Positions 1,698-9,814 of a stretch of DNA of 9,814 nt are shown piece by piece. A program made the position numbers and the translations under genes. Origin of the DNA: an uncultured archaeon. GTDB lineage: Archaea; Iainarchaeota; Iainarchaeia; Iainarchaeales; 0-14-0-20-30-16. Numbering within the stretch: the stretch's first letter is position 1; each line of letters begins with the position of its first letter. The notes under the pieces are model-generated. The model saw only the letters and a program-made list of their open reading frames with translations, was not told where the DNA came from and did not search any database. The stretch lies in contig CAZQQS010000009.1 of NCBI GenBank assembly GCA_964595665.1, positions 4,373-14,186 of the forward strand, given 5' to 3'.

Positions 1698-2236
1698 TTT
1701 ATTTCTTTTCCAATCTCTTTTTTAATAAATATTTTTGCTATAGACTCTATTAATTCAATTTCAGAATCTTTTTCATAAGGGCCATATTCTTTCATATCTG
1801 TTCCAATAAATTTTGGAACATCTTGTAATATCTTTAGTTTTACAACTTTTTTAGATATTTCTTCTATTTGGTCTTCAAAAGAACCTTTTACTAACATTTG
1901 ATAACTATGTAAAATATTTATTAATTTATAATAAATTTTTTGTTCTTCTAAAATCATATTTTTAATGTCATCTTCATTTGTTTTTATTTTCAATATTGCT
2001 TTATTTATAATTTTTTTCTCTCGCCAAGAAACTATATCTAATAACATATTTTTCATATTTTGTATTTTTCTAATAACTGAATCATCAAGATTTTTTTTCA
2101 TATCTTGTAATTTTGTTTTTTCTTCTTCGATAAATTCAGGAATTTCACTAAAAAAGTCATTATCGATTTTTACTAATTCTGTAGAATCTTTTTCTTGTCT
2201 ATGAATACTTCTAATAAGTTCATAAGATAATTTCAT
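1694..2236 (-). CDS. gins15: DNA replication complex GINS subunit, Gins51 (Gins15) type
   Basis: The A-domain begins YELIRSIHRQEKDSTELVKIDNDFFSEIPEFI. The C-terminal B-domain is LKILQDVPKFIGTDMKEYGPYEKDSEIELIESIAKIFIKKEIGKEI, the typical V-P-x-F-x-G-x-D-x-x-x-YGP-[FY] pattern. The gene sits beside priS, as is known for gins15. I moved the start to the internal ATG at 2236-2234 (M26 of the 205-aa track ORF), because GGGTG lies 6 nt upstream of it and the extra 25 residues lie inside priS. This gives 180 aa. Confidence 0.8.
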   Translation of the reverse strand: MKLSYELIRSIHRQEKDSTELVKIDNDFFSEIPEFIEEEKTKLQDMKKNLDDSVIRKIQNMKNMLLDIVSWREKKIINKAILKIKTNEDDIKNMILEEQKIYYKLINILHSYQMLVKGSFEDQIEEISKKVVKLKILQDVPKFIGTDMKEYGPYEKDSEIELIESIAKIFIKKEIGKEIK

Positions 2237-3449
2237 TTCCAGCACCCTTTGCAAGCAAATATAGGCCAATTTCATAAGGTAGTTCGACAATTTCATTGTC
2301 GTAAGGGCCATAATATTCCTTATTTAATAATAACTTTGGAACTTTTTTTAAATGAATCTTTATGGTTTTTTCATTTGAAGGCAATTTAGCATCCCTAAAT
2401 GGGGAGAAATCATCCAATTTATCCAAATCTATGTCTTTGGCTAATAACATTGCTCCTCCATGAATAGTATTGGGAACTCTTAAGATTTTGTAAATGTCTA
2501 TTGTTGTTTGCCTATCAATATACAATTTTTGTTTTTCTTTTATTGATTCTAAAGCAAAATACCATAAGTCTTCTGAATTGGCTTTTAATTTATAAAACTC
2601 ATTTTTGTCTAAAAGTTCTAATATAGCCAATTTATTTTTTATTAATTTATTAAATACAATTTTAGAGGTATCTTCTGGAAAATACTCTTCTAATTTTTGA
2701 ATCTCTGAATTATTAATTATTGTTTTTACCAAATTCAAATATTTTATTCCTTTACCATAGTTTAATCCTGTGTAAACTAAACTACCTTTATTATTTTCTA
2801 CAAATCCTAATTCTTTAAAATTTAATCCTGCTTCAGAAACATAATCTATTAATTCTAATCTTTCATTTTTTTTCAAGTGTTTTATTTTATTTGAAGAAAT
2901 ATAAACATGATATCCTTTATGTCCAGAGAAATTAATTTGTAATTCTTCTTCTGTAAATCCTAATTCATCTATTAATATTTTAATTAATCTTTTTGTTTGT
3001 TTTTTTGTTGCATTTAAACATTGGTCACAAACCCACTCACTTAATTTAGTTTTCATATTACATTCTGGGCATTTCATTATATGACCTTTTCCTTCCGCAC
3101 CACATTTTTCGCAATACCAAGAATCATGTATTTTCTTACAAGCTGTAGGAATATCGTCAGCATCAAATTCAAACATAAAATCGCTTTCCAACATATTTTT
3201 TGCAGTAGTTGGGGATGCATCTGGGAATTCATATTTTCCAATTGATTTTGATAAATAAAAAGGAATCTTATTTCTTAAAAAATCGTTTAAATCATAATTG
3301 TCTTTAAATTGAATATTTCGATTAGCAATTTTTTTGTTGTAAACTCCATATCCAAATTCATATTTTTCTATATCCTTAAGTTCTATAAAGGTTTTAGTAT
3401 AATAGTCCTTTATTTTAGAGGTTAAATATTCCTCTGCTTTAATAATCAT
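2220..3449 (-). CDS. priS: DNA primase small (catalytic) subunit PriS
   Basis: 409-aa ORF containing the archaeo-eukaryotic primase motifs. Motif I is FMFEFDADD (D96/D98). The Zn knuckle is CEKC...CPEC, plus CDQC (C113-C144, about 3018-3113). Motif II is FSGHKGYHVY and motif III is LRVPNTIHGG. The C-terminal domain resembles a GINS B-domain. Confidence 0.93.
   Translation of the reverse strand: MIIKAEEYLTSKIKDYYTKTFIELKDIEKYEFGYGVYNKKIANRNIQFKDNYDLNDFLRNKIPFYLSKSIGKYEFPDASPTTAKNMLESDFMFEFDADDIPTACKKIHDSWYCEKCGAEGKGHIMKCPECNMKTKLSEWVCDQCLNATKKQTKRLIKILIDELGFTEEELQINFSGHKGYHVYISSNKIKHLKKNERLELIDYVSEAGLNFKELGFVENNKGSLVYTGLNYGKGIKYLNLVKTIINNSEIQKLEEYFPEDTSKIVFNKLIKNKLAILELLDKNEFYKLKANSEDLWYFALESIKEKQKLYIDRQTTIDIYKILRVPNTIHGGAMLLAKDIDLDKLDDFSPFRDAKLPSNEKTIKIHLKKVPKLLLNKEYYGPYDNEIVELPYEIGLYLLAKGAGNEIIL
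2243..2247 (-). promoter_or_regulatory. GGGTG Shine-Dalgarno element for the GINS gene, embedded in the 3' end of priS
   Basis: The minus strand reads AAAGGGTGCTGGAAATG, with a 6-nt spacer to the ATG at 2236. Confidence 0.5.
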
Positions 3450-3464
3450 ATAGAAATAGGAAAG

Positions 3465-3479
3465 AATATATATAAATAA
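3465..3479. promoter_or_regulatory. Back-to-back TATA block shared by divergent priS and the pyruvate-kinase homologue
   Basis: AATATATATAAATAA is the only TATA-like element in the 44-bp spacer 3450-3493. The positions about 26 nt upstream of each ATG (around 3467 for the plus gene, around 3475 for the minus gene) both fall inside it. Neither ATG has an SD, which suggests leaderless mRNAs. Confidence 0.5.
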
Positions 3480-3493
3480 GTTATCAATATATC

Positions 3494-4210
3494 ATGTCAA
3501 AAACTAAAATAATTGCAACTTTGGGGCCTTCAAGTAGTTCTTTGGAAATAATTGAAAAGCTTATTAAAAATGGAGCAGATATTTTTAGAATTAATACTAA
3601 ATATGGTTCAGAAGAAGAATATTTGCAATTAATTGATAGTATTAATTTGGCAAAGAAAAAATTGAATAAAAAAACTAAAATTCTTTTTGATATTAAAAAT
3701 CAAAAATTAATTCCATTTTTGCGAGAAATAAAATTTGATTATTTGGCTGTTGCATTTGCAGAATCAAAACAACAAATTAATGCAATTAAAAAAAAGTTAA
3801 AAAATGATAAAATTAAAATTATTTCTAAGATTGAGACTAAGAAAGGTTTTAAGAATTTAAGCGAATTAATTAATTGTTCTTTTGGCATTATGGTTGCCAG
3901 AGGCGATTTAGGTAAAAATGTTCCGTTACAAAAATTGCCAATTTATCAAAAAGAAATTATTTCTATTTGCAATAAGAAAAATGTTTTTGTTATTACTGCT
4001 ACAGAAATGCTTTTGTCAATGCAATTTAATAAATTGCCTACAAAAGCAGAAGTTACAGATGTTGCAAATGCTGTTTTAGATGGTTCCAATGCAATAATGC
4101 TTTCTGAAGAAACTACTATTGGTAAATATCCTGAATTGGCAGTTAAATTTATGGATAAAATTATTTTAGAAATTGAAAAATGGAATAAAAAATTTAATTG
4201 TCTGGAATGA
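3494..4210 (+). CDS. pyk: Pyruvate kinase homologue reduced to the A-domain (beta/alpha)8 barrel; lacks the B (lid) and C (regulatory) domains
   Basis: 238 aa. SKTKIIATLGPSS, GADIFRINTKYG, ILFDIKNQ, KIISKIETKKG, GIMVARGDLG, VITATEMLLSM, PTKAEVTDVANAVLDGSNAIMLSEETTIGKYP are collinear with the PK signatures KTKIvcTiGP, mRLNFSHG, LDTKGPEIR, iISKIEn.eG, GIMVARGDLG, atQML.SM and PTRAE..DVANAvlDG.D.vMLSGEta.GkYP. The roughly 100-aa B domain between DxK and the next barrel strand is replaced by a few residues. The ORF stops just after barrel helix 8. Confidence 0.85.
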   Translation: MSKTKIIATLGPSSSSLEIIEKLIKNGADIFRINTKYGSEEEYLQLIDSINLAKKKLNKKTKILFDIKNQKLIPFLREIKFDYLAVAFAESKQQINAIKKKLKNDKIKIISKIETKKGFKNLSELINCSFGIMVARGDLGKNVPLQKLPIYQKEIISICNKKNVFVITATEMLLSMQFNKLPTKAEVTDVANAVLDGSNAIMLSEETTIGKYPELAVKFMDKIILEIEKWNKKFNCLE

Positions 4211-4874
4211 AAAACTTAATTATAAATAATGCAATTCCCACAATCAAAAATATAACTCCATAAGTTAATAATGTATTAGTAAAATTTGAAAGTATAGTAG
4301 TAATTAAAGAACCAAATTCTGGAAGTTTTTCTAAAATTAAATTATTTAAAGTATATTTTGTAACAAAAGTAAATATTATTATTGGGATTGTTGCAATTAT
4401 TAAATTTGTAGATAGCCAAGAAACTATTTCTTTTGGATTTCTTGAGAATATACTTACTATTCCGATTAAAAGGATCGCTAAGATTAATCCAAGTATTCCT
4501 ATTAATCGTCCAATACTGTAACTTGATTTTAATTTATTTAAAGTTTCGGATAAATTACTTTGAAAAGAATTTAATAATAAATTTGATTCCATGGTATTTC
4601 CAGAAACATTTATATCTAATCGTTTATCTTTTATAAAATCTATACTCTGAGAGACGTATATTTTTATGCTCAAAATAATGTCTTCTTTTACCATTGTGTT
4701 TAAGTCTATTGGAACATCTTCAAAAAGGTTTTCTGAATAATTATCTACTAATGTTTGATATGGTTCAGCAACAATTAAAGTATTATCTAAAACTAACCAA
4801 GTTAATGCTGTAGAAAATCCTACTATAAAAAAGAACCCAAATATTGCAAACAAAAACTTTTTTAAGAAATTCAT
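4194..4874 (-). CDS. Hypothetical integral membrane protein (N-terminal TM, extracytoplasmic region of about 110 aa, three C-terminal TMs)
   Basis: 226-aa ORF with clear hydrophobic segments (FLFAIFGFFFIVGFSTALTWLVL; LIGILGLILAILLIGIVSIF; LIIATIPIIIFTFV; LLTYGVIFLIVGIALFIIKFF). I recognise no family. Its 3' end overlaps the pyk homologue by 17 nt. Confidence 0.7.
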   Translation of the reverse strand: MNFLKKFLFAIFGFFFIVGFSTALTWLVLDNTLIVAEPYQTLVDNYSENLFEDVPIDLNTMVKEDIILSIKIYVSQSIDFIKDKRLDINVSGNTMESNLLLNSFQSNLSETLNKLKSSYSIGRLIGILGLILAILLIGIVSIFSRNPKEIVSWLSTNLIIATIPIIIFTFVTKYTLNNLILEKLPEFGSLITTILSNFTNTLLTYGVIFLIVGIALFIIKFFIPDN

Positions 4875-4892
4875 AAAATATGTATAACAGGC

Positions 4893-4903
4893 AAATATTT
4901 AAA
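4893..4903. promoter_or_regulatory. Central A/T palindromic TATA block in the 49-bp divergent spacer 4875-4923
   Basis: AAATATTTAAA. The expected TATA centres for leaderless transcripts starting at ATG 4924 (+) and ATG 4874 (-) are about 4897 and about 4900, both inside this block. There is no SD before either ATG. Confidence 0.4.
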
Positions 4904-4923
4904 CTTTACATTGTTTTATACTT

Positions 4924-5112
4924 ATGAATAAAATAAGTAGAATAATTACAGGATTAGTATTTATACTTGGCAGTTTAGCATTAATAATTTATTCTTTTTT
5001 AAGTGCAAAAATTGATTATGTCTCAATAGTTTTTGGTTTTGGCATATTAATTTTAGGACTGTTTATATTTTTTAACAAAGATGAAGATAAAATTGAAAAA
5101 GCAAAAGGGTGA
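4924..5112 (+). CDS. Small hypothetical 2-TM membrane protein
   Basis: 62-aa ORF with two hydrophobic helices (IITGLVFILGSLALIIYSFL; VSIVFGFGILILGLFIFF) and a charged tail. It is first in an operon, and its TGA stop lies inside the SD of the next gene. Confidence 0.55.
   Translation: MNKISRIITGLVFILGSLALIIYSFLSAKIDYVSIVFGFGILILGLFIFFNKDEDKIEKAKG
5107..5112 (+). promoter_or_regulatory. GGGTGA Shine-Dalgarno element containing the upstream TGA stop, 4 nt before the YbjQ-family ATG
   Basis: The sequence is AAAAGGGTGAAATTATG. Confidence 0.55.
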
Positions 5113-5116
5113 AATT

Positions 5117-5434
5117 ATGTTATTGGCAACTATAGATGAAATACCTGGGAAAAAAATTGATAAGATTTTGGGTGTAGTAAAAGGAAGTACTGTAAGATCA
5201 AGAAATGTTGGTCGAGATATTGGTGCGAGTTTTAAAAGTATTATTGGTGGAGAAATTAAAACTTATACTGAAATGACTATTGATGCGAGAGAAGAGGCAT
5301 TTAATAGAATGATAAATGAAGCTGTTAAATTAAAAGCAGATGCTATTGTAGGTATAAAATTTAATACTTCTATGGTAATGCAAGGTGCATCAGAAATGTT
5401 AGCTTATGGCACAGCAGTAAAACTAAAGAAGTGA
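5117..5434 (+). CDS. YbjQ/UPF0145 family protein (putative heavy-metal-binding domain family)
   Basis: LATIDEIPGKKIDKILGVVKGSTVRSRNVGRDIGASFKSIIGGEIKTYTEMTIDAREEAFNRMINEAVKLKADAIVGIKFNTS...GTAVKL aligns along its whole length with E. coli YbjQ-type proteins. I moved the start to ATG 5117 (M13 of the track ORF), which is SD-preceded and does not overlap the upstream gene. This gives 105 aa. Confidence 0.9.
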   Translation: MLLATIDEIPGKKIDKILGVVKGSTVRSRNVGRDIGASFKSIIGGEIKTYTEMTIDAREEAFNRMINEAVKLKADAIVGIKFNTSMVMQGASEMLAYGTAVKLKK

Positions 5435-5435
5435 T
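5431..5435 (+). promoter_or_regulatory. GTGAT Shine-Dalgarno-like element containing the YbjQ-family TGA stop, 4 nt before the tmk TTG start
   Basis: The sequence is AAGTGATATTTTG. Confidence 0.5.
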
Positions 5436-5438
5436 ATT

Positions 5439-6041
5439 TTGGAATACGAAAATTTAATTGTTTTTGAAGGCTTAAATGGTTCTGGCAAAGCTACTCAAAC
5501 AAAATTATTAGTAGATTATTTAAAAGTTAAAAATAAAGCTGTAGAAACAATTGAATTTCCAATTTATGATTCAGTTATTGGTAAATTAATAAAAGAATAT
5601 TTAAGTGAGAAAAAAACACAAGATACTTATTTTATATCTTTGATGTATGAATTAGATCGATTTCAAGTTAGAACAAAGATGTTAGATGTTTTAAATTCAG
5701 GTAAATTTTTAGTTTTAGATAGATATTTTTATTCCAATTTAACGTTTCAAAAAGTTTTATCTAATGATGATGATTTTATGCCTTGGATTGAGAATGTTCA
5801 AAAACCTTTGCCCAAACCCAAATATAAAATTTATTTAAAAATGCCATTAGAATATACTATTGAAAACATGAAAAATAAAAATAAAGATTGGCATGAACAA
5901 GATTTAGAATTTATGCAAAAAGTTTATGATGAATATATTGCATTAACAAAAGATTGGATAGTAATTGAGTGTGTCAAAGAAAACAAATTAAGGGCTATTG
6001 AAGATATACATAACGAAATAGTTATGCGATTAAAACTATAA
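5439..6041 (+). CDS. tmk: Thymidylate (dTMP) kinase
   Basis: 200-aa ORF. P-loop IVFEGLNGSGKATQ (Tmk pattern FEGxDGxGK[ST]T), DRY motif LVLDRYFYSNLTFQ, a LID-like MKNKNKDWHEQDLEF, and typical size. The start is TTG: an in-frame TAA at 5424-5426 leaves no upstream ATG, and the P-loop begins at residue 9. Confidence 0.75.
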   Translation: MEYENLIVFEGLNGSGKATQTKLLVDYLKVKNKAVETIEFPIYDSVIGKLIKEYLSEKKTQDTYFISLMYELDRFQVRTKMLDVLNSGKFLVLDRYFYSNLTFQKVLSNDDDFMPWIENVQKPLPKPKYKIYLKMPLEYTIENMKNKNKDWHEQDLEFMQKVYDEYIALTKDWIVIECVKENKLRAIEDIHNEIVMRLKL

Positions 6042-6046
6042 ATAGT

Positions 6047-6056
6047 TTTATATAAA
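6047..6056 (+). promoter_or_regulatory. TATA box for the 6077 gene (leaderless geometry)
   Basis: TTTATATAAA is centred about 26 nt upstream of ATG 6077. There is no SD. Confidence 0.4.
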
Positions 6057-6076
6057 CTTTTATTCAAATAATTAAT

Positions 6077-6268
6077 ATGGCATATGATTTCATATTCTTT
6101 ACTGTTCAAAATCCACTTTATCTATGGTTGTTTTTTGCAATTGTGGTTATAGGGTTTATTTTGTATAAAGATAATTTGAAATTAAGCAATTTAACTGATG
6201 ATAAGTTAAAACTATTTTTGTATATTCTTTTAATTATACTTTTATTTTACGTTTTTATTTATATGTAA
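6077..6268 (+). CDS. Small hypothetical 2-TM membrane protein
   Basis: 63-aa ORF with two hydrophobic helices (LYLWLFFAIVVIGFILY; LFLYILLIILLFYVFIY). A TATA box lies at the correct distance. I recognise no family. Confidence 0.5.
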   Translation: MAYDFIFFTVQNPLYLWLFFAIVVIGFILYKDNLKLSNLTDDKLKLFLYILLIILLFYVFIYM

Positions 6269-6273
6269 GCTAG

Positions 6274-6283
6274 CTTTATAAAT
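6274..6283 (+). promoter_or_regulatory. TATA box (CTTTATAAAT) upstream of the antiporter gene
   Basis: This is the same 10-mer as at 7950-7959. The predicted TSS near 6305 would give a leader of about 13 nt carrying AGGTG (6308-6312), 5 nt before ATG 6318. Confidence 0.4.
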
Positions 6284-6317
6284 TTAATATACTTTATTAA
6301 TACAATTAGGTGTATTA

Positions 6318-7613
6318 ATGGATCCAATTATTGTTTTAATTTTAATTAGTTTAATTATTTTATTAGGGGCTGTTGGAGAATTCTTTTTTCGAAAGACTGG
6401 TATTCCAGATGTTTTATGGCTTTTAGTTTTTGGTTTTGTTATTGGACAATTTACTAATTTAGATAGTAGTTTAGCAATTATGGATTTAATTCCAATATTT
6501 ATTGCATTAACTTTAGTAATCATTTTATTTGATGGTGGCTTAAATCTAAAATTAGGAAGTTTAGTTAAGAATTCTGCTTTGGGTTCAGGTATAGCAATAT
6601 TGTACTTTTTAATTTGTACTGCATTTGTTTTTTGTGTTACTTTCTTGTTACATTTTATAGGTGTATTTCCAGAATGGAGTATTTGGACTGGTTTAGTTTT
6701 GGGTATGATTTTAGGGGGCACAAGTTCAATAATAGTTATGCCTTTAGTTAATTTGGCTAAATTGGAAGATAAAATTAAAGATGTTTTAAGTGTTGAATCT
6801 GCTTTTACTGATGCCTTGTGTATTGTTGGAGTATTAACAGTTATAGATTATTTAACTAATCCTGGAACGGATTTATTAATGATTTTTAAAAATATAGTTG
6901 GAAGTATTTCTATAGGTTTGTTAGTAGGTTTATTAATTGGATTAATTTGGATTTATTTTTTGAAAAAATTATCTTCAGAAGAATCTTTAATTCAATATTT
7001 TTATGTTTTTACTTTGTCTTTAGTTATTTTCTTATATGTGTTTGTAGATTTTTTTGGTGGGGCATCGGCTATTGCTGTATTTGCTTTTGGTTTGGTTTTA
7101 GGTTCAGGCGTATTATTAAACAAGATATTCAAAACAAATTTTTATTCTTTGGACAAAGATATTGTTGTAATTAACAAGCAATTAGCATTTTTAATTAAGA
7201 GTTTCTTTTTTGTATTGATAGGTATGTTGTTTGTATTTATAGTAAAATCATTTATTGTTGCTTTAATTTTAGCTTTGTTTTTGTTTATTGCAAGATATTT
7301 GGTAATGAATACTTTTTCACAAACAAGATCTTTAGAATCTTCGCAAAAGAACTTATTATATTTATTTGCACCAAGGGGTTTGGCAGCAGGATTATTAGCA
7401 ATTTCTGTTACTCAATTAAATGTAATTCCTGGATCTTCAGAATTTAAAAATATAGTTTTTAGCGTTATAATTATTACTGTTATTGTATCTACAATTGCGC
7501 TTTTAATTTACAGATTTAAAAATAAAGAAATAGTTAAAAATGATGTTAAGAGTGATAATAAGAAAATAATCTCAAAAAAACCAATTTCTAAAAAAGTGGC
7601 TAAAAAATCGTAA
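6318..7613 (+). CDS. Cation:proton antiporter, CPA superfamily (Na+/H+ exchanger family fold)
   Basis: 431-aa polytopic ORF. FFFRKTGIPDVLWLLVFGFVIGQ, LVIILFDGGLNLKL, GGTSSIIVMPL and ESAFTDALCIVG correspond to the conserved TM1, TM3, TM5 and TM6 signatures of Na+/H+ exchanger family proteins. The C-terminal tail is Lys-rich and cytoplasmic. Confidence 0.85.
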   Translation: MDPIIVLILISLIILLGAVGEFFFRKTGIPDVLWLLVFGFVIGQFTNLDSSLAIMDLIPIFIALTLVIILFDGGLNLKLGSLVKNSALGSGIAILYFLICTAFVFCVTFLLHFIGVFPEWSIWTGLVLGMILGGTSSIIVMPLVNLAKLEDKIKDVLSVESAFTDALCIVGVLTVIDYLTNPGTDLLMIFKNIVGSISIGLLVGLLIGLIWIYFLKKLSSEESLIQYFYVFTLSLVIFLYVFVDFFGGASAIAVFAFGLVLGSGVLLNKIFKTNFYSLDKDIVVINKQLAFLIKSFFFVLIGMLFVFIVKSFIVALILALFLFIARYLVMNTFSQTRSLESSQKNLLYLFAPRGLAAGLLAISVTQLNVIPGSSEFKNIVFSVIIITVIVSTIALLIYRFKNKEIVKNDVKSDNKKIISKKPISKKVAKKS

Positions 7614-7618
7614 AATAG

Positions 7619-7879
7619 TTAGTATTCTTCTTCAGTTTCCAAATCTTCAATTATTGGCACATCTAAATTCTCAGTAAATCTTTGAATTATGCTTATTTCT
7701 AATTTTAAAGCATCAAATTTAAATTTACTTATTTCATTTAAATGTTTTTTAGTTGTTTTTTCATATTTTATTTTTTTAGGTTTAGAATTAATAATTTTCT
7801 TTGGTTTTGTTAATTTAGTGTTTTTTTCAGTTTTAACCTTGCTTTTTTTAGTTTTAATAATTTTACTTTCTTTAACCAT
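7619..7879 (-). CDS. Small hypothetical protein: Lys-rich N-terminal half, helical middle, acidic C-terminal tail (…DVPIIEDLETEEEY)
   Basis: 86-aa ORF. A TATA box at 7901-7908 is centred about 26 nt upstream of its ATG. The C-terminal 40 aa are not low-complexity. The competing plus-strand ORF 7689..7907 has no promoter or SD and looks like the Phe/Leu-rich mirror of a Lys-rich frame. Confidence 0.5.
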   Translation of the reverse strand: MVKESKIIKTKKSKVKTEKNTKLTKPKKIINSKPKKIKYEKTTKKHLNEISKFKFDALKLEISIIQRFTENLDVPIIEDLETEEEY

Positions 7880-7900
7880 AATAATTGTAATAATAAAATA

Positions 7901-7910
7901 TTTATAAATC
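7901..7910 (-). promoter_or_regulatory. TATA box (TTTATAAATC copy 1) for the 7879 minus-strand gene
   Basis: The palindromic core TTTATAAA is centred about 26 nt from ATG 7879. There is no SD, which suggests a leaderless mRNA. Confidence 0.5.
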
Positions 7911-7950
7911 AGTTCTATCTTTAATTATTTGAATTAATTTTAGAGATTAC

Positions 7951-7960
7951 TTTATAAATC
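7951..7960 (+). promoter_or_regulatory. TATA box (TTTATAAATC copy 2) for the 7999 plus-strand gene
   Basis: An exact 10-nt repeat of 7901-7910, placed 50 bp away. The predicted TSS near 7981 would give a leader of about 18 nt carrying the SD. Confidence 0.45.
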
Positions 7961-7987
7961 TTTTATTATAATATATATAACTGAAAT

Positions 7988-7993
7988 GAGGGG
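7988..7993 (+). promoter_or_regulatory. Shine-Dalgarno element GAGGGG, 5 nt upstream of ATG 7999
   Basis: The sequence is AAATGAGGGGTATTTATG. The in-frame TGA at 7987-7989 fixes 7999 as the first possible start. Confidence 0.55.
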
Positions 7994-7998
7994 TATTT

Positions 7999-8085
7999 AT
8001 GAATTATAATAATTTTTCAATTAAAGTAGTAAGTTTTTTATCAATTTTTTTATTAAGTTTTTTGTTTTTGGGTTTCGTTAATGCT
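7999..8085 (+). other. Signal peptide (29 aa), predicted cleavage after VNA
   Basis: It has a short polar n-region containing Lys, a hydrophobic core of about 17 residues, and a small-x-small (V-N-A) site followed by Glu. Confidence 0.7.
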
Positions 8086-9814
8086 GAAACTGTTAAAATA
8101 AAATATTATTCTATTGCTTCTGGTAATATTGATTCTATTTATTGTTTTGATTCTAAACCTAAATTTGATGGTCATGCATTAAGTACTCCTGATTTGGTTA
8201 GACAAACTATGCCTAGTCCATACAATAGGCAATATTGTTATTATAGACATTGGGCTAATATTGCTGTGGATTATAAATTAGAATTATTACCAAATAAAAT
8301 TTCTGAAAGTTATATTAAAGAAGGAGAAATAAAGAATCCTGGAATTAATTATTATGTTGATGAAGTATTTACTACTTTAAAATTAACTTCTGGACCTACT
8401 ACTAATTTAGGTGCATATCCTGTTAATTGGTATAAGGGGAAATATAGCACTTATGGTGTAATAAATTCAAATGGTGTTGAAAAATTAGTTTTAGATGTTA
8501 GTTTATATCCTAAATATACTACTGAGTTAGTTAGAAAAAAATCTATTTTGCCAACAGGTGCAAAATATTTTGTATATGCTCATTCTGGAAGTAGGGCGTA
8601 TAATATTTATGACTCAAAAGGTACATTTTTGGGAATTTATTCTATAGGTAATGGTGAAGGCACTGAAGACGATACTTTTAATGAAGCTTCATATTCTGTA
8701 AAAGAATTACCTTTGGTTTCAGGTCAAACTCCAGTTCAAGAGCCTGTTAAAGTTGTTGGTGCTGATACACAACAAATTGTTCCAGAAGATGAATCTGTTC
8801 AAGAAGCTGATGTTTCAGTACAACCCGCAGCTATAATGTCTGTTTCTGAAGATGGTATTACGAAAGGCGTATCTTTAGGTTTAGGGCAAACTGAATGTGA
8901 TTATGTTACAAATTTAACTAATTTTAATGTTTTAAATTATGATGTAATTTCTAAAAATGTTGGTTCTGCAGCATCAATTAATTTTCCTTTAGCTGATTCT
9001 AAAAATATTACAATAAATCTTAAAGGGGAAAAAAGTGTTTTGTTTAATGGATTATCAAAATGTTATTTAAAAGACATAGGTAAAGTTTATGTTGTTGAAG
9101 GTTATTATTTTAAATACAATACAATTGAAGAAATATTATTTTACAAATCTAAATTAGATACTACTTGTTTAGCACAAAAATTAAATTTAGTTAAAAAAGA
9201 AGAATCTAAAATTGCTTATTGTGTAAATACAACTTGTTCTATATTAAATTCTGTAAATGTTTCCAAAATAAATCAATCGGAAATTGAAGGTTTAGAAAAA
9301 TTTATGTGTTATTCTCAAGATTTAAAAGAAGCTGAGTTTATTGGAAATAGAACAATTGTTTTTTCAGAAGATGTAAAAAATTATGTTTGGGATGAAACAA
9401 AAACCAAATATGTATTTAATGCAAATTTTATTAATCAAGATGTTGTTTCAGAGGTAGATTCAGAAGAAGAGGTTATGAATTTAACTATAGCGCCAGGTCA
9501 AACTATACCCATAATTTTAAGAACTGTTGATTTTAATGTTGATTATAGTAAAGCTAAAGAATATGGTTTAATTTATCCTTTAGTTGAAGGAGCTAGTGTT
9601 TGGAGAGTTTTGTATAATGCTGATCCATCAGTTAATGCTATAGGATATTTTTGGCCAGAAAAAGAATGTGTAGAAGAAGAAGCAAATTCAATTTGGTATT
9701 CAAAAAATATTAATATGAAAAATCATTCCGAATTTGATGGTGAAAATAAAGTAGTTGGATTAGTATTTTCTGACTGTGGTCAAATAAATGGTAGATGGGC
9801 TCAAAATAGTATTT
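7999..9814 (+). CDS. Large secreted/surface protein of unknown family; 5' partial that runs off the right edge (at least 605 codons)
   Basis: This gene is not in the supplied ORF track. I translated it by hand: ATG at 7999, then 604 further sense codons with no stop up to the window end, in DNA where every other frame closes quickly. The N-terminus MNYNNFSIKVVSFLSIFLLSFLFLGFVNA/ETVKI is a classic signal peptide. The mature part has 10 Cys. A Q/E/V/P-rich linker separates two globular regions. Confidence 0.88.
   Translation, partial: MNYNNFSIKVVSFLSIFLLSFLFLGFVNAETVKIKYYSIASGNIDSIYCFDSKPKFDGHALSTPDLVRQTMPSPYNRQYCYYRHWANIAVDYKLELLPNKISESYIKEGEIKNPGINYYVDEVFTTLKLTSGPTTNLGAYPVNWYKGKYSTYGVINSNGVEKLVLDVSLYPKYTTELVRKKSILPTGAKYFVYAHSGSRAYNIYDSKGTFLGIYSIGNGEGTEDDTFNEASYSVKELPLVSGQTPVQEPVKVVGADTQQIVPEDESVQEADVSVQPAAIMSVSEDGITKGVSLGLGQTECDYVTNLTNFNVLNYDVISKNVGSAASINFPLADSKNITINLKGEKSVLFNGLSKCYLKDIGKVYVVEGYYFKYNTIEEILFYKSKLDTTCLAQKLNLVKKEESKIAYCVNTTCSILNSVNVSKINQSEIEGLEKFMCYSQDLKEAEFIGNRTIVFSEDVKNYVWDETKTKYVFNANFINQDVVSEVDSEEEVMNLTIAPGQTIPIILRTVDFNVDYSKAKEYGLIYPLVEGASVWRVLYNADPSVNAIGYFWPEKECVEEEANSIWYSKNINMKNHSEFDGENKVVGLVFSDCGQINGRWAQNSI
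8719..8832 (+). other. Low-complexity Q/E/V/P-rich interdomain linker within the secreted protein
   Basis: The translation is SGQTPVQEPVKVVGADTQQIVPEDESVQEADVSVQPAA. It has no aromatic or Cys residues, unlike the flanking regions. Confidence 0.5.

Follow-up and report, generated by a model that had tools for sequence, protein, structure and literature searches.

A large, predicted secreted orphan protein encoded at a hypervariable, cassette-like site in an AT-rich archaeon

The last part of the archaeal DNA stretch analyzed here (9,814 nucleotides of contig CAZQQS010000009.1, hereafter the window) is occupied by a forward-strand open frame at 7999-9814 that represents the 5′ ~40% of one gene of ~4.2-4.5 kb, with a product of ~1,400-1,500 amino acids (aa). 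The gene stands at a hypervariable, cassette-like site, a main feature that was missed by the original prediction, an earlier reading of the same DNA. Its product belongs to an orphan family of six proteins found in one archaeal lineage and at one chromosomal site, and comparison of the aligned sequences shows module-level mosaicism, gene fission and fusion, and a sharp breakpoint in homology at the end of the signal peptide. Surface proteins under diversifying pressure typically show such a pattern, which is why we favor, tentatively and at a little below even confidence, the explanation that the gene encodes a variable cell-surface contact (binding) protein.

The gene and its hypervariable locus

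Translation of 7999-9814 on the forward strand gives 605 sense codons with zero stops and one spare base, and an in-frame stop at 7987, upstream of ATG 7999, makes that ATG the only possible start. The original prediction had described this frame as absent from the open reading frame (ORF) track, as dropped for want of a stop inside the window and as too long to have arisen by chance, and all three statements are borne out: the frame is missing because the ORF lister skips any frame that extends past the end of its source, and with a stop probability of 0.093 per codon from the local base composition, or one stop per ~11 codons, the probability of 605 open codons is ~2e-26. Each of the remaining five frames across this interval has 36-89 stops, and none stays open for more than 49 codons. 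Beyond the window edge the gene can be followed in its relatives. Residues 538-605 of the window protein are 74% identical to the first 67 residues of P0002, which runs on for 870 aa, and the locus L004 encodes an intact, collinear orthologue, P0004, of 1,411 aa, which ends at a genuine stop and is followed on the opposite strand by genes for an FKBP protein and a class II aminoacyl-tRNA synthetase. A distant relative from a GTDB genome, encoded at the locus L003, has 1,683 aa. Since the window protein represents ~40% of a product of ~1,400-1,500 aa, it is better called large than giant, and the latter word, used in the original prediction, overstates the 1,411-1,683 aa of the full-length relatives. 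Tandem repeats sought in the large gene amounted to trivial AT-rich ones.

Two observations could be taken to mean that the frame is not one functional gene, being instead an assembly chimera or a pseudogene fragment that is open by chance: the homologous locus L001 is full of frameshifts, and P0002 starts at an internal position. The frameshifts of L001 (ENA contig NODE_6507), however, hit all of its genes, with the pyruvate kinase (PK) gene, YbjQ and the large gene each split, and they go with a coverage of only 0.61x. One gene, intact as P0004, accounts for both of the fragments recorded from L001, P0001 (655 aa) and P0005 (433 aa), and the counterpart of window residues 551-596 continues in another frame beyond the apparent stop of P0001. 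An artefact is also opposed by the chance value given above, by the intact collinear orthologue in L004 and by the conservation of cysteines and motifs described below, so that this reading is effectively refuted and keeps a barely perceptible share of our confidence.

The family is a narrow one. A word-indexed search of 5.8 billion proteins returned one relative, P0001, an exhaustive profile search of 1.84 billion representatives returned P0001 and P0002 only, and no further relatives came from a final word-indexed profile search, from a genome-collection scan with the window protein or from either of two metagenome scans. Searches of Pfam, NCBIfam and PHROGs with the window protein and its relatives gave no family match, and neither a sequence search of the PDB nor two profile searches of it with the family alignments gave an accepted match, in agreement with the earlier statement that the protein has no recognizable family. 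A match to the NCBIfam model of RNA polymerase subunit L, at 18 bits against a cutoff of 103, was dismissed as noise, and a PDB match to a de novo helix bundle with an E value of 0.014 was set aside as well.

The variability of the site is most evident in the closest genome, that of locus L002. Window positions 1919-7779 align with L002 at 83.7% DNA identity, and the neighboring proteins of the two loci are 66-96% identical, yet a tblastn search with the 605-aa sequence finds no match in L002. Past the small reverse gene that borders the site, L002 has three consecutive forward-strand genes, encoding proteins of 588, 882 and 435 aa, each with its own signal peptide. The first of these (L002 6040-7806, +) encodes a secreted orphan with 14 Cys, for which no homologue was found in the other loci or in the databases searched, and which sits between the conserved TTTATAAA promoter and the gene for P0003, so that the conserved promoter drives the 588-aa gene. 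The gene for P0003, the 882-aa protein, starts 12 bp after the 588-aa gene and has its own Shine-Dalgarno (SD) motif. Using the letters A to D for the modules delimited in the next section, P0003 consists of a different N-terminal region followed by module C, and the 435-aa protein of yet a different N-terminal region followed by module D. The L003 protein has still another N-terminal region, encoded within L003 7388-9300 (+) and made up of about five tandem repeats of ~88 aa, each with four conserved Cys (…C[ED]GY…YKC…(S/D)(F/I)C…), followed by a Thr-rich linker; these repeats have no Pfam match. When all pairs of variable N-terminal regions were compared with hhalign, no relation was found except that between an insert in P0004 and the N-terminal region of P0003.

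The position of the gene is fixed throughout: the large-gene site follows PriS, PK, YbjQ, Tmk (and in some loci NhaP) and the small reverse gene, and precedes the FKBP and class II aminoacyl-tRNA synthetase genes. The neighborhood is the same in the distant L003, with aIF2-alpha, GINS, PriS and PK upstream and FKBP and the synthetase downstream. No reverse transcriptase is present among the neighbors in the window, L001, L002 and L004, nor in L003 as far as it was scanned, in part, against Pfam; no template/variable repeat pair (≥30 nt, high identity) occurs in the window, L002 or L004, with ~10-15 kb covered per locus; and the locus shows no terminal repeats, its flanks being housekeeping genes. 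On the side of a viral origin there were no PHROG matches and no IMG/VR relatives with either profile. Together these results argue against a diversity-generating retroelement or a mobile element. The gene was accordingly rejected both as a retroelement target, for the absence of reverse transcriptase and repeat pair in the examined loci, and as a viral or mobile-element protein, for the absence of viral relatives and terminal repeats and the presence of housekeeping flanks.

Modules, export signal and promoter

Alignment with P0004 divides the window protein into a signal peptide and three modules, the last of them cut by the window edge. Module A (8086..8724, +; residues 30-242) is Tyr-rich and predicted to be rich in beta structure, has two conserved Cys (49 and 80), is 49% identical to residues 30-226 of P0001 and P0004, and has no profile-profile match among the other variable N-terminal regions. 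Tyrosine makes up 11.8% of residues 30-215, compared with 4.2% in the pooled cytoplasmic neighbors. The junction that follows is a linker rich in Q, E, V and P (8719..8832, +; approximately residues 241-278), recognized by its composition and from the alignment with P0004, and the richness in V, E, Q and P extends across residues 216-300. In the place of this linker P0004 has an extra module of 146 aa (residues 227-372), which resembles residues 110-212 of P0003 (hhalign 87%; blastp 24% identity, E 1e-7). Module B (8788..9645, +; residues 264-549) contains six conserved Cys (300, 355, 390, 408, 413 and 437), and window residues 264-558 match P0004 residues 373-640 with 44% identity. A weak similarity to the L003 protein is seen in the C-terminal third of the module, where the L003 stretch beginning at residue 746 aligns with P0004 from residue 551. 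Modules A and B are confined to the window protein and P0001/P0004.

Module C begins at 9646 and is cut at 9814 by the window edge (+; residues 550-605, FWPEKEC...SDCGQINGRW), where it aligns with P0004, P0003 and the L003 protein; in relatives the sequence continues ~500-870 residues further. In P0004 the signal peptide comprises residues 1-29 and is kept in the window protein and P0003, module C comprises residues 638-1157, corresponding to P0002 7-551 and P0003 318-852 and aligning with the L003 protein at 24-25% identity, and module D comprises residues 1190-1403, corresponding to P0002 584-792 and to residues 219-406 of the L002 435-aa protein. The original description of a Tyr-rich N-terminal region with two Cys, a Q/E/V/P linker and a following region with eight Cys is thus confirmed, the latter eight being those of module B, which include the CVNTTC pair at 408-413, together with Cys 557 and 593. 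All ten Cys of the window protein align with Cys of P0004 and vice versa, at 49.6% overall identity, and the last two are also found in P0002. This reciprocal conservation supports a structural role for the cysteines, as had been suggested for disulfides, although they may also form metal sites.

The signal peptide is encoded at 7999..8085 (+; residues 1-29, MNYNNFSIKVVSFLSIFLLSFLFLGFVNA), with a predicted cleavage site at VNA/E. The window protein has a single hydrophobic segment, at residues 5-34 and including the VNA/E site, and it is the only one with a Kyte-Doolittle hydropathy above 1.6. Its layout comprises K9, a hydrophobic (h) region at residues 10-26 and VNA/E at 27-30, and by heuristic criteria for a Sec/signal peptidase I signal peptide (n-region charge, an h-region of 10-20 residues and small residues at −3 and −1) it scores as one, with the layout kept in P0004 and P0003. 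The signal peptide and cleavage site proposed earlier therefore find support in the n/h/c layout and in conservation, and remain predicted features. The conservation extends to P0003, whose N terminus is otherwise unrelated: its signal peptide, MDRNFSIKIISLISIFLISFLFLGFVSA, is nearly the same as that of the window protein, and the DNA that encodes the two is ~85% identical as judged by eye, with the similarity ending right after the Ala29 codon. A class III signal peptide of the type IV pilin/archaellin kind is not indicated, there being no K/R-G/A motif before the h-region (the sequence there is ...SIK-VVSF...) and the VNA site lying after it.

All family members are acidic (pI 4.7-5.3) and rich in Cys, and each has one hydrophobic segment, at the N terminus, with no transmembrane (TM) segment elsewhere. 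A C-terminal TM anchor or PGF-CTERM signal, which the original prediction had put forward as something to look for, is absent from the complete relatives (P0004, P0002 and the L003 protein), as is any second hydrophobic segment; the C terminus of the window protein itself lies outside the window. One explanation of the missing C-terminal anchor would be that the signal segment is not cleaved and tethers the product by its N terminus as a type II membrane protein. It would fit the facts that this segment is the only hydrophobic one in every member, that its h-region of 17-18 residues could span a membrane and that it is kept at the DNA level even where the remainder of the protein is replaced. 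The canonical small-residue −3/−1 site (VNA/E, VSA/L) conserved directly past the h-region speaks for cleavage, and we consider an uncleaved signal-anchor improbable.

Upstream of the ATG, a TATA-like archaeal TTTATAAA box lies at 7951..7958 (+), 48 nt before the start codon, and a second copy at 7901..7908 (−) lies 29 nt upstream of the small reverse gene, forming the other half of a divergent promoter region. Both boxes are invariant in the window, L001 and L002, and the claim of a TATA box and SD motif belonging to the gene itself thereby stands on conservation and not on pattern matching in AT-rich DNA alone; TTTATAAA occurs five times in the window, three of them at promoter-like distances from gene starts. 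The SD-like motif is GAGGGG at 7988..7993 (+), 5 nt before ATG 7999. Such a motif precedes two of the 11 window genes, the large gene and NhaP, and its equivalents at L002 gene starts are AGAGGG and GAGGTG.

The small reverse gene (7619..7879, −) is divergent from the large gene and forms the upstream boundary of the variable locus. It encodes 86 aa, of which 25.6% are Lys, and by tblastn it is 66% identical in L002 and 69% identical, over its C-terminal half, in L001, with genes called at the same position in both; it has no Pfam or PHROG match and was not found in L003 by tblastn. Its product could be a nucleic-acid-binding protein or a regulator of the large gene. As this conserved gene lies within 7614-7998, the true spacer upstream of the large gene is 119 bp, which is the third longest in the window after 6042-6317 (276 bp) and 4875-5080 (206 bp), and the earlier statement that the large gene adjoins the longest non-coding spacer is wrong.

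Possible functions of the variable protein

We read the window product as a predicted Sec-exported, acidic (pI ~5), disulfide-stabilized, multi-module extracellular protein of an AT-rich archaeon. It consists of constant parts, the signal peptide and the C-terminal modules C and D, which lie mostly beyond the window, and of an exchangeable part, the N-terminal modules A and B, which fill the window. As a contact protein, the role that we favor at slightly less than even confidence, it may be displayed on the cell surface or released at it; the conserved C-terminal modules would keep it in place, in the envelope or as part of a complex, and the variable N-terminal modules would make outward contact, probably binding the surface of a partner or host. 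Whole modules would be replaced by recombination, for which the DNA encoding the signal peptide may serve as one conserved crossover anchor. The suggestion of host attachment in the original prediction gains circumstantial support from the hypervariable, mosaic locus, while attachment itself is something we infer.

Several considerations weigh against a variable contact protein. Module C is itself divergent between genomes, at 41-46% identity compared with 85% for the neighbors, and the "constant scaffold" is therefore only relatively constant, while six sequences are too few to separate recombination formally from rapid divergence. Neither a membrane anchor nor a cell-wall anchor is present in the complete relatives, so that the protein could simply be released, and N-glycosylation sequons are not enriched in the window protein (nine observed, 6.6±2.3 expected). 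Searches of Pfam and the PDB revealed no adhesion-type domain (Ig, LamG, cohesin, beta-helix or lectin), and AlphaFold2 gave no usable three-dimensional model, with a mean predicted local distance difference test (pLDDT) score of 30.4 for the window protein, from an alignment of two sequences, and of 36.8 for P0002, from one of four. Binding, surface location and expression are all putative, and the status of the organism as a DPANN archaeon or episymbiont is a plausible one.

Many of the same properties would suit a main structural protein of the envelope, such as an S-layer or sheath, in which case the hypervariability would stem from the pressure of viruses or predators on an abundant lattice protein, and not from host binding. 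A signal peptide, an acidic pI, a large size and the lack of a TM anchor are common to many archaeal S-layer proteins whose attachment depends on partners, the conserved TATA box and SD motif may point to strong expression, and there is one such locus per genome fragment, in a fixed position. S-layer genes are also well known to be hypervariable between strains. On the other hand, the window protein, P0001, P0002 and P0003 have no Pfam or NCBIfam match to S-layer models (Pfam S_layer_N/S_layer_C, DUF1608-type and halobacterial PGF-CTERM glycoproteins), a high Cys content is unusual in S-layer proteins, there is no PGF-CTERM or TM anchor, and the three-gene split in L002, with the full replacement of the N-terminal modules, is hard to square with conserved lattice contacts. 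We regard an envelope lattice as possible, if rather unlikely.

Release into the medium, which the lack of an anchor after the signal peptide in the complete relatives would permit, raises a different prospect, that of a secreted effector or enzyme (for example, one that degrades polysaccharide or cell walls, or a toxin) acting on neighboring cells, with the variable modules setting its substrate or target specificity. The gene for an SLT lytic transglycosylase lies two genes upstream of the L003 homologue, and the richness of module A in Tyr and Trp may be compatible with carbohydrate binding. Against such a role, no catalytic or toxin domain was found in any member with Pfam, NCBIfam, PHROGs or the PDB, and the variable part is N-terminal here whereas that of polymorphic toxins is C-terminal, and a freely secreted effector accordingly strikes us as improbable.

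The favored contact protein can be carried one step further, to a more specific proposal that we hold with considerable doubt. The locus might be a partner-specificity cassette site of a DPANN-like lineage, in which the export signal and the C-terminal scaffold are kept while the outward N-terminal modules are swapped between strains by way of the signal-peptide DNA. Each variant would recognize a different host or partner surface, and so set the host range, and the modules could be redistributed into two or three co-transcribed genes whose products form one surface complex.

Neighborhood, related systems and significance

The other genes of the window encode PAC2, aIF2-alpha, GINS51, PriS, a short PK-like protein, YbjQ, thymidylate kinase and a Na+/H+ exchanger; the GC content is 18-32%, and the window contains neither a tRNA gene nor any Rfam element. 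The neighbors aIF2-alpha, GINS51, PriS and PAC2 prove the archaeal origin of the contig. In the original prediction the source was called a small-genome episymbiotic archaeon, and of this the archaeal part stands, while the small-genome episymbiont part is consistent with a GC content of 24%, tight gene packing and the SLT gene of L003 but goes beyond them. Pointers to DPANN are indirect, namely the archaeal core genes, 21-30% GC, a conserved truncated PK and the same SLT gene. That gene (L003 4791-5831, −) encodes a lytic transglycosylase domain with a Pfam E value of 1.4e-20 behind a lipoprotein-like leader (…LLFSLSAC…), and peptidoglycan cleavage by its product hints at interaction with bacteria. 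SLT-type peptidoglycan cleavage and interaction with bacteria have been reported for small Pacearchaeota and Woesearchaeota (PMC8204110), a picture into which the L003 gene fits, though it does not prove taxonomy.

Three of the neighbors deserve separate mention. The product of the gene annotated as pyruvate kinase (3494-4210, +) has 238 aa and corresponds only to the end of the PK barrel (positions 181-328 of the 328 in the Pfam model). Since L002 (236 aa) and L003 (249 aa) keep this short form too, the truncation of the PK-like protein is genuine and does not stem from an assembly artefact. The Na+/H+ exchanger gene (6318-7613, +) is present in the window and L002 and absent from the syntenic L001 and L003, which makes it a second polymorphism of presence or absence next to the variable locus. 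The GINS51 ORF (1694-2311, −) overlaps the end of PriS (2220-3449, −) by 92 nt, and since the L003 GINS orthologue has 180 aa and an overlap of 17 nt, the window GINS start is probably a later ATG.

The family is new, and the phenomenon of strain-variable surface-protein loci is known. In bacterial flagellin, phage tail fibers and strain-variable S-layer proteins, conserved segments for export or assembly act as recombination anchors, and exposed segments are replaced wholesale between strains. Those examples come from other families and organisms, and the present case differs in that the variable part follows directly after the signal peptide and that the modules can be split into separate genes, as in L002. 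The arrangement appears new in form, with a fixed locus, replacement of an N-terminal cassette starting at the cleavage site, and modules divided among co-oriented genes.

Among small-genome archaea, the Nanoarchaeota symbionts offer a parallel, in that no class of their proteins diversifies faster than the hypothetical cell-surface proteins (Jarett et al. 2018, PMC6142677). They resemble the window protein in being lineage-specific, secreted, domainless and faster in diversifying than the rest of a small symbiont genome, and have been read as serving host recognition or evasion. In that work, however, the measure was single-nucleotide polymorphism density within populations, whereas here whole modules are replaced between genomes at one fixed locus; the proteins have no sequence homology to the window protein, and for the present archaeon a symbiotic lifestyle is a plausible reading. 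Large extracellular proteins have more generally been proposed as contact devices of DPANN archaea (PMC6642349; PMC8204110). The SPEARE proteins of Nanohaloarchaeota (Hamm et al. 2019, PMC6642349) are likewise very large and mostly extracytoplasmic, with a variable outer part, a more conserved remainder and a proposed role in host contact, but most named members have 3,300-8,500 aa. Besides a TM helix and, on the cytoplasmic side, a type III restriction-enzyme domain, they have LamG and further adhesion domains together with serine-protease and toxin-like regions. The present family lacks all of these: the window protein has no Pfam domain, and its relatives are free of TM helices. The murein-transglycosylase proteins of Pacearchaeota and Woesearchaeota (2021, PMC8204110) are similar in being lineage-restricted, extracellular products of small-genome DPANN archaea with a proposed role in attachment to a (bacterial) partner, and the SLT-domain gene near the homologous L003 locus adds to the likeness, but the window protein itself has neither an SLT nor any other recognizable domain.

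How uncultivated small-genome archaea recognize and hold their partners is largely unknown, and most of the candidate proteins are unannotated orphans. The locus described here offers a testable handle on the question, as a single site, fixed in synteny, where genomes of otherwise ~84% DNA identity differ by the replacement of whole modules of the secreted product. If the variable modules do not bind partners, the window protein would be one more lineage-specific orphan secreted protein, a class very common in such genomes; if they do, comparing the alleles of the locus with the co-occurring hosts could reveal determinants of host range without cultivation.

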